Counted from the stretch's first letter, positions 43,287 to 49,254 are shown. The stretch is DNA of 64,000 bases from Psilocybe cubensis (GCA_017499595.2 CM039001.1:2418001-2482000), one strand, 5' to 3'. Numbers and translations are program-made. The notes: generated from the sequence alone by a model not told the origin.

Positions 43287-43860
43287 ACGGCGTCTCGTAA
43301 ATCTCCTCTAAGAGACCGTTTGCTTTCAAATTCTCCAGATCCCATCAAATCGTCTATCTTGCGCGAATCAGGAATGGGGTGGAATACACCAACATTGAAT
43401 GGCTCTATTCAACCTTCCGGGAGTACAGGTCTATAACCTCTCCACTTCGCATTGCCAAACAAGATTCTCCCAGTGGTCGTGTTCGAGGTCCTGCCGTGGC
43501 TCGCAGAACCTCGTCTAGCTACCGATATGTTCATAACAACAACCTTGTGTCCAATTCTCCATTCAAGTCACTGATACCAACGCCATTGACCCCATCTACA
43601 CGGCCGCCTCCTATTTCATTTCCGACGAGGAAATATCTGGTGAAAAACACCCACGCCCCTCATCGATGCACGAACTAGGAAGCAAAGCAAAACATTCCAG
43701 GGTCTTATCGACAAAGAACCAGTTACCAAGAGTCCATTTCGTATTCAACAGAAACAGCCTGTTTCCCAGCCCCCGAAGCCTCCCCTCGCTCCCATTCAAA
43801 ACGAACAATCAACTTTATTTTCAACCCCACCCGCGCCGTCACATATTTCACCCCCGGTCT
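43287..43860 (+). pseudogene. Degenerate 5' fragment of a host gene, possibly the Bud4/anillin-like N-terminus
   Basis: ASRKSPLRD...SSILRESGMGW, PLRIAKQDSP, RRTSSSYRYVHNNNLVSNSPFKS, SGEK.PRPSSMHE, RKQSKTFQGLIDKEPVTKSPF, split across frames. The family call is from memory only. Confidence 0.4.
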
Positions 43861-43889
43861 CTACACCCAATAATGGTCCATCTCCTGGT

Positions 43890-45595
43890 CGCATGGTTCG
43901 TCGTCGAATGCGACTAGCCCTGTGCTTTCGACTAGTACGTTGCAGACTACGCCTTCGCCTCCGCCGCTTAGCGATGAGGGCTTGGGATCAGGGTCAGGGT
44001 CTGGGGCGGGGTTGGTTAGTAGGAAGGAGATGGAAGGATAGCACACCCAGCAGCATACCCAGCACACCCAGCAACAGCAGCGCACTAGTACTCAACGCAC
44101 AGGGACTGGTGCCCGTACTAGCACTGGCACTGGCAATGGTGTCCAGCGCACCAACGCAGAAGGACCACGGCTTATCCCTGTCGACCCAGTCCGCGCCACC
44201 CCGCACCTCCTTGCAAAAATCCCGTATGTGCCCGTGACGATTGCGCATTTGCCGCAGGATAGTTTGGAGGCGCTTAGATCTGTACGTCTTGGCTGTTAAT
44301 TGTTTGTTTGTTTTCTTGAGCACTTTCTGATGATGGATTGGTTGGTTGGTTTTTGGTCTTTTTAGGCATGGCGCGAGGCATGTGCGCCGCTTTATCATTG
44401 TTGTCGTAGTGTGTGTGAGCGTGCGAAGGTGGTTGAGATGAGTGCACGCCCTGCTGCTGCTGCTATGGGTTCGTAGCAGGGTGTTGTACCGCGGGTCGCA
44501 TCAGGCGGTGTACCCGACGCCGAATGTTCCGCCGCTGCAGCATGCGGGCGATGAGATTGTGTTAAAGGAGGATGAGGACGATGGCGTCGATGGCGTCGAG
44601 TTGGATACAGATATGGAGATGGAGATGGGGATGGGGAGGGTGAGGAGGAGGTTGATTATGATGTTTTGGATTATGAGGATGAGGATGAGGAGCAGGAGGA
44701 GCAGGAGGAGCAGGATGAAGAGGAGGAGGAGGAAAGGGAAGAAGTGCAGGAGGAGGAGGAGGAGGAGGAGGAGTACGACCCCGACCATGACCATGGCCAT
44801 GCGGCGGAGAGGTATCGGTACTCTGGCTCTGTCTCTGTCTCTGTTTCTTCGAGTGTAGCTGTACCCGCTATATACTACTACCACCACCACCGCTACTACC
44901 ACAACTACCACCACCACAACCACCGCCACCACAACTACAACCACCGCTGCTGATATCCACACTCCGACGTATAGATCGGTCCCTGCCCCAACCCCGCTCT
45001 TCGCACAGCGCCCATTGCGCAAGAGGTCATCTGATGAGCTTAATGATGATGGAGATGGAGAGGGTGATGCGGGGTACGATACGGCGAGTAGAAGTAGCGA
45101 GACGCTTTCGTCTTCGTGGGTGTCTAGTGCTGGAGCCGGTGCGGGGGATAATGGGCGAGAGAATCAAGGGGATAATAGAGGGGTGTTTGACCTGTTGATG
45201 TTGCTGTGGGTGTGGGTGTAAATGTGGTGGCGCCGGAGCTTGTGATGAGGCCGAGGAAACGGAGTAGTGAGGAGTTGGATGATGAGCATGAACGTGAACG
45301 CGGGCGTGAGCGTGGGAGTGAAGAGAGGGTACCGTGTCGGGGAACATACCATAACGACAACCACAACCACAACGACACATATAGCCTCCACAACCACCAA
45401 CGTATCCGGGTGCACGCGCCGCTTTCGCCGTCGTCTGAGAGCCCGCGCAGTAGAAGGCGGAGCGGGAGTGTGTATTATTCATCGTCTGCCGATGCGGAGG
45501 AAGGTGATCGGGATGTGGTGTTTTCTGAGGTGGGCGATGGCGATGTTGATGTTGATGTGCATGTGGATGGGGATGGGGACGATATCTCAGGGGAC
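43890..45595 (+). pseudogene. Degenerate fragment of an uncharacterised host gene with acidic/low-complexity tracts; one intron retained (about 44282-44365)
   Basis: IPYVPVTIAHLPQDSLEALRS|AWREACAPLYHCCRSVCERA across a GT-AG intron, then poly-Glu, two RKRSS(D/E)EL motifs, in-frame stops and frameshifts. Confidence 0.5.
44660..44950. repeat. GAG- and CAC/ACC-rich trinucleotide low-complexity tracts
   Basis: gaggaggaggagg... (about 44676-44775) and ccaccaccacc/actaccac... (about 44875-44945). Confidence 0.8.
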
Positions 45596-46096: not shown

Positions 46097-46843
46097 TTCG
46101 CGAGATTCTCATGGAGGAGTCGAACGTACAGCCTGTAAGGTGCCCGGTCACTGTCTGCGGTGATATTCATGGCCAATTCGTGCGTCCCGCTTCGTTTCCT
46201 GTACAAAATGACTTTCTTATATCTACTGGCGCTCGTTTCTTTTCCTACGTATCCTTTGCATTCCTTCTCTGGCTCATTATCGTCGTCATCAGCACGATCT
46301 ATCAGAACTCTTCCGGATCGGAGGCAATTCTCCGGACACCAACTACTTATTCATGGGCGACTATGTTGACCGAGGATACTATTCTGTCGAAACAGTTACA
46401 CTACTGGTCGCCATGAAGCTTCGCTATCGAGATCGGGTCACCATACTTCGCGGGAATCACGAGTCGAGACAAATCACGCAAGTTTATGGCTTTTACGATG
46501 AATGTCTTTGAAAATACGGCAACGCCAGTGTATGGCGCTACTTTACCGACCTTTTTGATTTCCTACCTCTTACTGCTCTCATTGACAACCAAGTACGTCG
46601 ATATCTGCATACACAGCTTATTGAGATTATGCTGTAACATTCCTCGTGTGATGACCCCTACAAGGGTTATCTCACTTTGGATCTACATTCTCATCAATTG
46701 CTGACTCTCATGCCCTAGATATTCTGTCTACACGGTGGTCTCTCATCATCCATCGATAATCTTGAACATGTTCGCTCCATCGATCGAGTGCAGGAGGTTC
46801 CACGTGAAGGGCCTATGTGTGATCTTCTATGGTCCGACCCCAA
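46097..46843 (+). pseudogene. Captured internal fragment of a PP2A catalytic subunit with two introns and a premature TGA (46509-46511)
   Basis: [62 protein letters not shown]...[25 protein letters not shown]...|IFCLHGGLS...[20 protein letters not shown]- and C-termini absent. Confidence 0.9.
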
Positions 46844-46961
46844 GGTGTGGTGCGTGTGCGAGACGACGGGATTGTGTGGGCGAGGTGGGATGTGCTCAAC
46901 GATCGGTATAACTATTTTATTTTATTTTTCTTTCTTCCTCGCTAATGCTTTTTTAAATCTT

Positions 46962-49254
46962 TAGACGGGTCCTCGTAGTCGCCTATCCGTCGGCCCTGCA
47001 GATATGGGATACGTATGATCTGAAAGCTATTAGGGAGGTCGTACGGCTGCGATTCGATGCTTCTGCTCCTTCTGGCACGCAGACGCAGTGGAGTGCGCTT
47101 TTCGCTCTTGGTAGGGAACCGATGGGTACAGTAAAGGGCCAGGTTGCCGGTCATGGTGTCGGTGGTAGGATAGGGTCGGGAAGAGACGGTTTTACGATCC
47201 GCGTTGCACATGCGGTTATCCTTCCTGCTACCAGCCGGCGAGCGAAGGCTGCGACGCGCGACAAGGACGTGTTTGAGGATGAGAGGCCATTGCTTGGTGT
47301 GTTACTTGAAGCGGAGGCGGCGGAAGAGGATGGTAATGCGGGAGTTGAGTCTGTGACGGAAGTGGTATTTGTGGTGTATTCGCTTCGGACACATCGGGTG
47401 GTGAAGCATGTACCGCTCTCTGGGGTTCCTGATTTTGGGAGTCGTGCGGGTACTTTTGATGTTAGCAAGGATTTCGTAGTCCTTGTAAGTTACTACTTCT
47501 CCTTTATTCTCTTTGAGTTTGTTGATTTTCTTTGCTTTGTCTAGAGCACGAAGAGCCCACCAACACTACATATTCTTTCGTCCGCGACATTCCGGAGGCT
47601 TCACACTATCCACTCAACGTCCCTGGAAGCGTTCACAAGGCCCCCGCGCTTACCTCCTCCTACCCCACATGGCTCAGAAATGAATGTGGATGTAGCAGGT
47701 ATCAACACCGCCACAGGAGGACCTCCCAGCGTGCATGCAGACGCAGCAACCGGAAAGTCCAGAACAGGCGCCTTTTCATCGGGCCTCTCATTGTCCATTG
47801 CCTCGAACGCGCTGTATGCTCCTGGGAGCCGCAGTAGCACGCCTGCTTCTGTCAATCCTAGTGGAAATGCTGAGCAAGCTGATGGATCAGCCTCTGTGCC
47901 AGTAGTGTACCCCTCTCCCGTGTTTGCCCTGTCTGGAAGACTCCTGGCGTATGCATCGCCCGTCCCTGGGCGCAGCACGGGGGCTAGTGGAGGAGATGCC
48001 GGCTCTATGTCTCCAGGGGGTGTTGGTGGCGTCGGCTCGTCCCCTTCTCCGTCATCCTTCCTCGGTGTCGGTACCGGTATCACTTCAGGTATTAGCAAAG
48101 CCTCTCGCAGGCTCTCGTCATCGTCATCAGCGTCTGTACACTCGAACGCACCGTCCAGCGCGTCATCGTCGTCCGCGCCCTTCGGGTTAAGCGCTATAAG
48201 TGGGATTGGGGCAAGTATCCCGCGCACACAGGCGGAGGTGGGGCATGCTGCGCTGAGGGTCGGAGAGAGCGTGGTGAGTGGTATGCGGTTTTTGGGTGGT
48301 ATGGCGGTGGATGCTGCGCGTAGCCGGGTGGGCGCTGGCGTGGGAGGTGGTGTGCCAGTCAGGCAGGGTACACCTGTTGGTGCAGGGCGGGCGGGCGGAA
48401 GTGTTAGTGGAGGAGGGAATGGGAGGTACATCTCGAGAAGTGCACCGGATAATGCGGAGGATGTGGATGATTCTGCGGCTGCGCAAGCTTTGCGTGAGCG
48501 CAGGTACTCCGCCAACGCGCCAGCCGCTGTTGGAAGTGTTCCGTCGTTCTCGTCGTATGTCAGTTCGCATGCCGTCGCACCACATACGACGGGCGTGGTT
48601 GAACATGGGCATTATGTGACGGTGCTGGATTTAGCACCGCTCCTGGACTCCAACTCTAGCGGGGTAGATGGATCTGGACTCGATCTGGAGAGCACTGTGA
48701 AGAACATACACGACGTCGACGTTGTCTATAATGACGAACTTGTCGACGACATGCGCCCAATCCGGACCCCTATGAAGATCGATGAATTCAATGCGTCGCG
48801 CAGCCAGCCCGTTGCAGGTCTCTGCTTCGCGCAAGATGGGACAAGCGTGGGCGTGATCACGCGCGACGGGCACCGTGTCAAAGTATTCAGGCTCCGCCCC
48901 GTGCCGTCCGTCGTGCGTCTAGGAGAAAGGAACACATCGTCAGAATTGGTGGAGGAAACTGGTTTGCAGGAGACACCACATGGCCCGCGTGCTGCGCAGG
49001 TGTATGACTTGTATCGCGGACGCACGTCTGCTGTGGTGGAGGGTGTGTATTGGGCGAAAGACGGCAGGTGGGTTGCGGTTGGTACTCGAAATAGGACTGT
49101 TCATGTGTTCGCGACGAACCCCTACGGCGGAGAGACTGATTTACGAAGCCACATGGAGGGGAGGGTTAGAAATGTGGATGTGATTGTGAGTTTTGTTCTT
49201 TCCTTTATACCGTGCAGGCAGTATTTTTCAGCCTTGACTATGAGCGACTCGTAG
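46962..49254 (+). pseudogene. Captured internal fragment of a BCAS3-like WD40/PROPPIN-related gene
   Basis: VYSLRTHRVVK, STKSPPTLHILSS, PVFALSGRLLAYASP, LCFAQDGTSV...GHRVKVFRLRP, YDLYRGRTSAVVEGVYWAKDGRWVAVGTRNRTVHVFATNPYGG; no recognisable true start or C-terminal exons. Confidence 0.65.

Follow-up and report, generated by a model that had tools for sequence, protein, structure and literature searches.

A chain of truncated host-gene fragments as probable cargo of a CACTA/EnSpm-type DNA transposon in Psilocybe cubensis

A stretch of 64,000 nucleotides of Psilocybe cubensis DNA (GCA_017499595.2, CM039001.1:2418001-2482000), referred to as the window, was analysed. On its plus strand, at 43267-49213, fragments of five unlinked host genes, each of them truncated, follow one another as a chain. 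The genes concerned are one resembling Mid2/Bud4, an uncharacterised acidic locus, one for a carboxypeptidase Y-like (CP) protein, one for the catalytic subunit of PP2A and one resembling BCAS3/Atg18h. The 5.9-kb chain lies within a CACTA/EnSpm-type element (Table 1), in the variable region that separates the transposase core from the right end. Alignment to the parent genes bore out the five truncated plus-strand pieces, which the initial annotation had named in this order, and moved their outer limits from 43287 and 49254 to 43267 and 49213. The pieces do follow one another as proposed, but the CP piece is nested in piece 2 and does not simply adjoin it. The same orientation of five independent pieces would occur by chance in about 1 of 16 cases, which is suggestive, not strong.

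Table 1 Features of the chain and of its carrier element (window positions)
Feature	Position	Strand	Remarks
CACTA/EnSpm-type element carrying the chain (left end predicted)	22079..50916	.	28,838 bp
Left terminal inverted repeat CACTGTGGGA (predicted)	22079..22088	+	AGGC (22075-22078) directly before
Left subterminal repeats	22274..22576	+	5 copies, 36-nt unit
RTC4-like domain frame, left arm	23561..24109	-	Pfam PF14474, E 9.3e-11
59-nt palindrome-containing inverted repeat, left copy	33025..33083	.	
Transposase gene (predicted)	38153..41612	-	Tnp2 domain and DUF4218 exon
DUF4218 exon	38868-39287	-	23.8 bits, under the cut-off of 27
772-aa open frame with Tnp2 domain (PF02992)	39297-41612	-	36.6 bits, cut-off 28.6
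59-nt palindromic inverted repeat, right copy	42107..42164	.	
Piece 1, Mid2/Bud4-like	43267..43913	+	20 nt of 5'UTR and codons 1 to about 216-226 of 1475
Piece 2a, uncharacterised acidic low-complexity locus	43891..45581	+	
Piece 3, carboxypeptidase Y-like	45582..45901	+	codons 69-154 of 571; nested in piece 2
Piece 2b, rest of uncharacterised locus	45902..46097	+	
Piece 4, PP2A catalytic-subunit fragment	46098..46841	+	human PP2Ac residues 33-204 of 309
Piece 5, BCAS3/Atg18h-like	46840..49213	+	codons 282 to about 1012-1026 of 1677
Right terminal inverted repeat CACTGTGGGA	50907..50916	-	AGGC (50917-50920) directly after
Right-end region common to other family copies	49579..50916	.	loose ends before 49579, raised depth
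82-nt tandem duplication in right-end region	49689-49852		
245-aa frame in right-end region	49697-50431	-	

Full-length parents were found elsewhere, as proteins of P. cubensis, in genomic contigs of single-copy depth and in transcript contigs with the introns spliced out, and four of the five captured loci have a named parent or family. The X8 genomic contigs, which have single-copy depth (37-41), each match one piece and then diverge, while X10 transcript contigs splice out five GT..AG introns kept in the window and extend past the ends of the pieces. Retained introns together with intact parents substantiate the proposal of the initial annotation that host-gene fragments were captured at the DNA level. 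The reverse direction, parents derived from the chain, looks unlikely because of the orthologues present across the Agaricales.

The parent of piece 1 is the P. cubensis protein 'Septin ring organizing protein mid2' (P0026, 1475 aa), whose residues 2 to about 216-226 align at 43290-43913, scattered over three frames. ACG stands in place of the ATG start, the 20-nt 5'UTR starts at 43267, and an X10 transcript contig of 4496 nt covers 43267-43679 with 19 differing letters in 413 nt; no intron was shown in this piece. In the parent of piece 2 parts 2a and 2b are contiguous (joints from 45533 or 45581 to 45902 in X8, X10 and X12), and piece 3 is a 320-nt insertion at a place where this parent has a single C (X12 joint 45581->45902). 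Piece 2a is matched by an X8 single-copy contig on 43891-44661 (72 other letters, 77 gap letters) and by an X10 low-depth contig on 43891-44197. Piece 2 has no Pfam family in the scans and its parent was absent among the named proteins searched; its host origin is read from two things, depth and a low-level transcript.

Piece 3 corresponds to residues 69-154 of P0021 (571 aa), at about 45581-45901, and retains an intron (45720-45782) that a spliced X10 contig skips (joint 45719->45783, GT..AG); a PDB search, taken on its own, gave a weak match (E 0.17). Piece 4 retains introns 46180-46292 and 46593-46718 (X10 joints 46179->46293 and 46592->46719) and has an in-frame TGA at 46509-46511; the match of an 18.9-kb X8 contig is confined to exactly this piece. 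For piece 5, the protein match to its parent, P0001/P0103, covers 46841-49185 and the DNA likeness runs on to 49213. Introns 46905-46963 and 47485-47544 are retained, along with 27 nt from the start of a third, and a 5.2-kb X10 transcript contig shows joints 46904->46964 and 47484->47545 with loose ends at 46840 and 49186. An 8.1-kb X8 genomic contig matches 47672-49213. In BLASTP the 569-aa frame is 95% identical to P0001/P0103, and 33 of 742 residues differ. The pieces are pseudogene fragments in decay: a start codon is gone, reading frames are shifted, a stop codon interrupts one frame and one junction is out of frame.

At the junctions, whose microhomologies the initial annotation had suggested defining, there are overlaps of two nucleotides (CG at 45580-45581, CC at 46840-46841). 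There is no overlap at 45901/45902, where one parental C is lost. Across the PP2A/BCAS3 junction the reading frame is not maintained.

The host-gene fragments are located between the terminal repeats of the element. Its right end at 50916 is confirmed by reads and contigs of several copies: three X1 contigs and 90 X12 reads have loose ends diverging there, with differing continuations, and the match of a 52-kb X8 contig to the window starts only at 50917. The sole other exact occurrence of CACTGTGGGA in the window is at 22079, inverted relative to the right end. This inverted copy, the AGGC flanks and subterminal motifs, all taken from the window sequence alone, point to 22079 as the left end. 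The flanks (AGGC|element|AGGC) represent a 4-bp repeat, or one of 3 bp (AGG or GGC) with a one-base offset, in this single insertion; duplications of 3 bp are described for fungal EnSpm families, and of 2-5 bp across the CMCT clade (PMC12730594). With the predicted left end the inverted termini read CACTG..CAGTG and match the 5'-CAC(TA/TG)...GTG-3' criterion of CACTA/EnSpm elements. A related subterminal motif, of a pattern devised post hoc from sequences already seen, occurs at 22460, 22546 and 22571 (plus strand) and at 50600 and 50575 (minus strand) and nowhere else in the window; near the right end it spans 50548-50600 and is inverted compared to the left copies. The terminal repeat is short (10 nt). 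Plavaka elements, with termini TGT..ACA (A) or CATCA..TGATG (B) and 2-3-bp duplications according to the same source (PMC12730594), were considered as well; CACTG..CAGTG termini match neither type and fit EnSpm.

The predicted transposase frame has 3945 matching representatives at E<=1e-3, and its residues from about 255 to 772 align end to end with relatives. Tnp2 (PF02992) was matched in all eight scanned relatives, seven of which exceed the curated cut-off. One relative, P0116, combines Tnp2 and RTC4 domains within one gene model, and the RTC4-like frame is probably an accessory gene of the element family. The 59-nt inverted-repeat pair brackets the conserved core of the element. Pfam scans comprised 148 frames of at least 104 aa (whole window), 64 shorter ones (22-38 kb) and 43 in the neighbourhood of the chain; Tnp2 was the sole transposase domain, and neither a Rep/helicase nor a Tet_JBP domain was matched. 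With its predicted transposase in a long open Tnp2 frame the carrier looks autonomous. The fungal CACTA-type carrier inferred in the initial annotation is supported: CACTG termini bound the element in which the chain lies, and this element has a Tnp2 transposase.

Two X1 unitigs of high depth cover parts of the chain, one from the core into piece 1 (41802-43318, depth 114) and one of 3.3 kb, with depth 120.8, from piece 5 into the right end (46878-50203). Set against X1 reference depths of 24.6 for a unique flank contig and about 24 for the parent variants, this gives about five copies, although contig word depth is strictly not a copy number and the reference consists of one 32-kb contig and variant contigs. 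X12 has at most about one copy of the chain per genome. Two P. cubensis contigs, of 2.30 and 4.15 Mb, each have an annotated BCAS3-fragment model, and both models begin 12 nt upstream of the PP2A/BCAS3 junction. The models are 3 of 764 residues apart and differ from the parent at 33-36 of 742, with 33 differences in common. Copies are thus present at different sites, and the element appears to have been mobilised together with its cargo. One strain has the parents only, without the chain: X8 depth over 44.0-49.3 kb equals the depth of the parents alone. The region of about 42.5-49.6 kb varies among family copies, with loose ends at 42537 and at 49579, the latter found in X1, X8 and X12.

We regard the chain as transduplicated cargo of a 28.8-kb, apparently autonomous CACTA/EnSpm DNA transposon, with a probability of roughly 80%. 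Genomic DNA of five unlinked host genes, introns included, would have been joined inside the variable region of the element, most likely by error-prone repair of a double-strand break or gap with template switching and filler insertion. This route is suggested by the junctions, which overlap by 0-2 nt, and by the 320-nt CP piece, which replaces a single base. The chain would have been assembled a single time and later copied passively along with the element, giving several nearly identical copies. As practical effects the chain gives rise to spurious gene models and possibly to RNAs homologous to host genes. The element is presumably still mobile.

That the junctions are assembly chimeras has a negligible probability. 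The low-complexity stretch 44662-44952 does interrupt contigs and reads, but seven runs from two studies contain 83-96% of sampled 31-mers of 42200-50200, X1 unitigs span the passage from the element into piece 1, the junction of pieces 1 and 2 and the boundary of piece 5 with the right end, and independent gene models span the junctions piece 1/2, 2a/CP (P0019, P0020, P0102) and PP2A/BCAS3; junctions 45901/45902 (CP/2b) and 46097/46098 (2b/PP2A) were not individually seen in these independent data. Apart from these two junctions, neither result that the initial annotation had said would refute it, a lack of intact parents elsewhere or chimeric junctions, came about. A functional chimeric gene, or several, formed by exon shuffling and maintained by selection is very improbable. 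Predicted proteins of 526-740 aa and 764 aa cover the chain in public annotation, the BCAS3 frames (195 and 569 aa) are still open, and a 184-aa frame reads through the 2a/CP junction. Against this stand the missing ATG and three-frame alignment of piece 1, the in-frame TGA in PP2A and the differing frames of PP2A and BCAS3 where they are joined; none of the transcript contigs was recognised as coming from the chain itself, only one of the 16 X10 contigs being at least 99% alike, in a data set whose strain may lack the chain.

Plant Helitrons, those of maize among them, typically carry intron-containing gene fragments strung together in one orientation, and the chain resembles Helitron capture in this respect. 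It could accordingly be an insertion within the CACTA element, either a non-autonomous Helitron or a different element that captures genes, and the CACTA element would then only carry it; the chain occupies the region that differs among family copies and is flanked by unassigned stretches (42165-43266 and 49214-49578). We consider this improbable, as every X1 copy of the chain shares single unitigs with the CACTA core and the right end, the chain has no flanking inverted repeat, and the Pfam scans contain no Rep/helicase or transposase domain other than Tnp2. A 3' hairpin with CTRR after it is a further Helitron hallmark, and a coarse test found no perfect hairpin with a stem of at least 7 bp in 49150-49700 or 42150-43300. 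Intact Helitrons of Pleurotus ostreatus are described without host gene fragments (PMC4289320). Distinctly improbable, too, is a pseudogene cluster that arose by local rearrangement or segmental duplication and came to lie beside the transposon by chance. Such a cluster would be compatible with a left end drawn solely from the window, and the chain lies outside the strongest inverted-repeat pair close to the transposase (33025/42164). The repeat boundary at 50916, however, lies 1.7 kb past the chain and is contiguous with it in the 3.3-kb unitig at about five-fold depth, chain copies occur on two different contigs, and in the chain-less strain the right flank is joined to other sequence exactly at 50917.

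Transduplicated cargo invites comparison with plant Pack-CACTA elements such as Arabidopsis Pack-CACTA1a, which share CACTA-type termini, fragments of several host genes taken as genomic DNA between terminal repeats, doubling of the cargo when the element is copied, and frequent mis-annotation as genes (PMC6379663, PMC8903248). The term Pack-type, used in the initial annotation, suits the host-gene fragments between the termini and their copying with the element; it does not suit the long open transposase frame, since Pack-TYPE elements are by definition non-autonomous (PMC8903248) and the 28.8-kb carrier has its 772-aa Tnp2 frame inside the termini. Plant elements of this kind were searched for at 0.3-15 kb. 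The capture model put forward for plants, aberrant excision of neighbouring insertions, would take one contiguous locus per event; the present chain joins five loci that are not linked, one of them nested in another. Furthermore, the host is a basidiomycete fungus. Fungal EnSpm, Plavaka and KDZ elements have captured TET/JBP dioxygenase genes, and these carriers are likewise Agaricomycete CMCT-clade elements with CA..TG termini, 2-5-bp duplications and additional genes of cellular descent; they hold one intact, presumably useful gene instead of a chain of truncated, decaying fragments (PMC12730594).

Capture and amplification of gene fragments by transposons is well known in plants and hardly documented in mushrooms. 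Studies of transduplication in ascomycetes reportedly concern hAT-type elements and single genes, compared to a five-gene chain in an EnSpm-type element here. These studies, on Pyrenophora tritici-repentis (PMC3538342) and on housekeeping-gene amplification (PMC6710886), likewise describe a fungal DNA transposon amplifying host-derived coding sequence, in hosts that belong to the Pezizomycotina, unlike the basidiomycete here.

An extended reading, in which an active autonomous mushroom EnSpm-type transposon builds multi-gene exon chains stepwise and its chimeric or small RNAs act on the parent genes, is unlikely. In this reading the RNAs would come from the multi-copy, 94-98% identical fragments of essential genes, e.g. 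the PP2A catalytic subunit. As to stepwise building, some strains appear to have copies with the first piece only and others copies with the entire chain, and one piece is nested in another. If the reading is true, the element would be the fungal equivalent of Pack-type elements, with capture traceable between strains.

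Four public sequencing runs (X1, X8, X10 and X12) were aligned to positions 32001–52000 of the window. Parents, i.e. the full-length source genes elsewhere, were identified from named P. cubensis proteins together with contigs and reads of these runs. X8 is a DNA run. X10 was classified as RNA by guess and shows transcripts of the parents, not of the chain; its contigs were placed at a likeness of at least 80%. The initial annotation had described a row of truncated, intron-retaining host-gene fragments in one orientation. This observation is confirmed by protein matches and by spliced X10 contigs: five pieces, all on the + strand, form a chain at 43267–49213 (see the table for coordinates). 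Pieces 2–5 are incomplete on both sides; piece 1 retains its 5′ start and is cut short only on its 3′ side. The proteins closest to the pieces, at 93–100% identity, belong to P. cubensis, and the source of the window is accordingly this species or one very close to it.

Pieces of the chain, frames of the carrier element and neighbouring features
Feature	Position	Strand	Match or remark
Piece 1	43290–43913	+	P0026, 'Septin ring organizing protein mid2' (1475 aa), aa 2 to about 216–226
Piece 2	from 43891, interrupted, on to 46097	+	acidic, low-complexity locus
Piece 3	45582–45901 (320 nt)	+	P0021, carboxypeptidase Y-like (571 aa), aa 69–154; one intron
Piece 4	46098–46841	+	PP2A catalytic subunit, human residues 33–62, 61–134 and 163–204 in three exon frames
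Piece 5	46840–49213	+	P0001, BCAS3 WD40 protein (1677 aa), aa 282–1026
Tnp2 transposase frame (772 aa, open)	39297–41612	−	above Pfam cut-off; followed by a DUF4218-like exon
RTC4-like domain frame	23561–24109	−	left arm of the element, E 9.3e-11
Distant Spt5-like frames	33338–37163	+	core; Pfam Spt5_N E 5.7e-3, Spt5-NGN E 8.4e-4, in successive frames
Element frame	28325–29269	−	Protein Atlas: nothing usable, best score 0.80
Element frame	35240–35929	+	Protein Atlas: no match
Lone subterminal repeat motif	17436–17467		inverted, 4.6 kb beyond the left end of the element; possible remnant of a further element copy
Gene immediately right of the insertion	51235–51913	+	expressed in X10

The match of piece 1 to P0026, whose homologues in other Agaricales carry the name BUD4, falls into four blocks over three reading frames. 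Its start-codon position reads ACG, and the match of a 4496-nt X10 transcript contig begins 20 nt upstream of it, at 43267. Pfam searches with pieces 1, 2 and 3 as single frames gave no match, and no Pfam family was found in piece 2. Piece 3 reached only E 0.17 against PDB; its identity was settled by P0021. This carboxypeptidase piece interrupts piece 2, as in the parent of piece 2 position 45581 (or 45533) joins directly to 45902 in X8, X10 and X12. The order of the pieces given in the initial annotation holds, but their simple adjacency does not in the case of the carboxypeptidase. Piece 4 matches the human PP2A catalytic subunit with E values of 1e-9 to 1e-42 and contains an in-frame TGA after '...YDECL'. 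For piece 5 there is also a longer model of the BCAS3 protein, P0103, which is named 'Autophagy-related protein 18h'. Upstream of the chain, 108 nt at 42449–42557 are the sole match of an X10 contig from a very highly expressed transcript (depth 918), with loose ends on both sides. Six-frame translations of this stretch gave nothing recognisable, and it may have been captured as another small fragment.

X10 contigs skip 45720–45782, 46180–46292, 46593–46718, 46905–46963 and 47485–47544, each with GT..AG ends, and at 46840 and 49186 they run on into sequence absent from the window; past 49186 the letters translate into the residues of P0001 that come next. Because these contigs skip introns that the window retains and extend beyond the ends of the pieces, the chain consists of genomic copies, and its parents are genes that are both complete and expressed. 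An origin of the pieces as retrocopies is thereby ruled out, and the proposed capture at the DNA level is borne out. Intact parents were found as full-length P. cubensis proteins, as X10 transcripts and as X8 contigs at single-copy depth (37–41), each of which matches one piece and then diverges; the match is restricted to 46098–46841 in an 18.9-kb contig and lies at 47672–49213 in an 8.1-kb contig. Compared to parents in other strains, piece 1 is about 95%, piece 2 about 90%, the carboxypeptidase piece about 96%, the PP2A piece about 97.6% and the BCAS3 piece about 94–96% alike. Transitions between chain and parents in X10 are balanced in direction (63 A>G plus T>C, 74 C>T plus G>A), which excludes a RIP-like or deamination bias.

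At the junctions, the transcript match of the carboxypeptidase starts at 45580 and the match of the piece 2 parent extends to 45581, an overlap of 2 nt (CG). At 45901/45902 the overlap is zero, and the chain has lost a single C that the piece 2 parent contains. Likeness to PP2A extends to 46841 and likeness to BCAS3 starts at 46840, again overlapping by 2 nt (CC), and the two reading frames differ there. The junction between pieces 1 and 2 lies somewhere within 43891–43913. Judged from a 30-letter loose end, the left break of the PP2A piece would lie 2 nt inside an apparent exon start of the parent. Such features would fit repair by end-joining or template switching, not splicing or reverse transcription.

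The chain lies within a CACTA/EnSpm-type transposon. Among cluster representatives, 3945 are related to the 772-aa transposase frame, whose 520 conserved residues align end to end with them; the Tnp2 model was matched by all eight scanned relatives, in seven of them above the cut-off. Past 50916, differing sequences follow in three X1 contigs and in 90 X12 reads. A 32-kb unique X1 contig starts at 50888, and only the part of the window from 50917 onward is matched by a 52-kb X8 contig. Since the sequences diverge there, the right end of the repeat was fixed at 50916. The element's final bases are ...TCCCACAGTG, a CACTG-type terminus. Elsewhere in the window CACTGTGGGA has one exact site, at 22079, in inverted orientation as required. 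AGGC stands on both flanks, and a related subterminal motif is confined, within the window, to the two ends. From the right-end divergence, the inverted 10-mer, the AGGC flanks, the subterminal repeats and the RTC4-like frame in the left arm, the element was taken as 22079–50916 (28,838 bp), its left end being placed from the window sequence alone. One transposase relative, P0116 (1844 aa), combines Tnp2 and RTC4 domains in a single gene model, and the RTC4-like frame is suggested to be an accessory gene of this transposon family.

A 59-nt inverted repeat at 33025–33083 and 42107–42164, built on a perfect palindrome (ATTTCGAAATCCATGCCGA...), brackets the core with the transposase (33.0–42.2 kb), and between its copies X12 depth is raised about 1.6-fold. 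As element ends these repeats were rejected: X1 depth is high on both sides of them, and the multi-copy boundary is at 50916. They may delimit an inner unit or lie at a boundary prone to recombination or capture. X12 depth is higher over the core and the right end (49.6–50.9 kb) than over the regions between them, and therefore the chain occupies a variable compartment. The core also appears to encode a distant Spt5-like protein. Against PDB these frames gave an SPT5 KOW domain (E 0.0098) and plant RDM3/KTF1 (E 0.22); all Spt5-like matches are below curated cut-offs, but they are colinear.

In X1, chain-bearing unitigs, which lead from the core into piece 1 (41802–43318) and from piece 5 to the right end (46878–50203), have a depth of 114–121, compared to 24.6 for the unique flank and about 24 for parental variants; core unitigs reach 156–171. 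Word depth, which is only a proxy for copy number, thus indicates about five copies with the chain and one or two further copies that lack it. Independently of depth, the public P. cubensis annotation contains two models of 764 aa for the BCAS3 fragment, one on a 2.30-Mb contig and one on a 4.15-Mb contig, the latter also carrying the full-length parent. On the 2.30-Mb contig, pieces 1–3 are covered by a model with the preceding accession number, which from this order is taken to be the neighbour of the 764-aa model. One 764-aa model is identical to the window translation and the other differs in 3 of 764 residues, while both differ from the parent in 33–36 of 742 residues and one indel. These shared differences indicate one capture event and, after it, recent copying. 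X8 depth over 44.0–49.3 kb equals that of the parents alone, and this strain therefore lacks most or all of the chain; at the 47802 indel, where the chain has a 9-nt deletion relative to the parent, 24 of 41 X12 reads show the chain form. A 1.5-kb X8 contig (depth 22.5) covers 42321–43322 and crosses into piece 1, the extra X8 depth lies over piece 1 and not over later pieces (42673–44006), and in X12 the depth declines in steps from piece 1 onward through the later pieces. This hints that piece 1 is the only piece in some element copies. Strain polymorphism could reveal the order of capture events.

Judged from its sequence, the chain shows no sign of function as a gene: piece 1 is frameshifted and without its start codon, the PP2A piece contains a stop, and BCAS3 does not follow PP2A in frame. 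It might give rise to chimeric transcripts or small RNAs; none of the public runs listed as containing the chain stretch is an RNA run. Chain copies are nevertheless annotated as genes, namely as hypothetical proteins with lengths of 526, 739 or 740 aa, besides the two 764-aa models, named 'Autophagy-related protein 18h' (43137–45907, 46829–49308). These models are probably pseudogene artefacts; named as genes, such copies inflate gene families and can mislead comparative work.

The Tnp2 transposase and the CACTG-type termini support the initial interpretation, capture by a fungal CACTA-type element, in its core. In PMC8903248 and PMC6379663, transduplication by Pack-type elements is treated as a plant phenomenon and fungi are unmentioned. 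The process in plant Pack-CACTA elements is the same as in the Psilocybe carrier; however, plant Pack-TYPE elements are by definition non-autonomous, whereas the carrier looks autonomous, and it is twice the size range searched there (PMC6379663, PMC8903248). Its termini fit fungal EnSpm and not Plavaka; the repeat on its flanks is 4 nt long, or 3 nt if one end is offset, and compares with 2–5 bp in the wider clade (PMC12730594). Fungal precedents are transduplication in ascomycetes (PMC3538342, PMC6710886) and TET/JBP genes captured by Agaricomycete transposons (PMC12730594); for intact Helitrons of Pleurotus (Agaricales), host gene fragments were reported as absent (PMC4289320). Full-text searches, outside subscription journals and supplementary files, turned up no description of host-gene fragments in a CACTA/EnSpm element of a fungus; for transduplication in fungi at large the coverage was 20 of 87 papers, too few to demonstrate absence. 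A multi-gene chain in an amplified, autonomous-looking EnSpm element shows the same process operating in mushrooms, and is a clean example from a fungus in which strains are polymorphic and the annotation is affected.

Between 1 and 20 kb the window holds ordinary, intron-bearing genes for GH3, beta-galactosidase, hexokinase, SOD, DAD and adenosine deaminase. In the gene immediately right of the insertion, X10 contigs skip five short stretches of 50–60 nt each, four of them with GT..AG ends.
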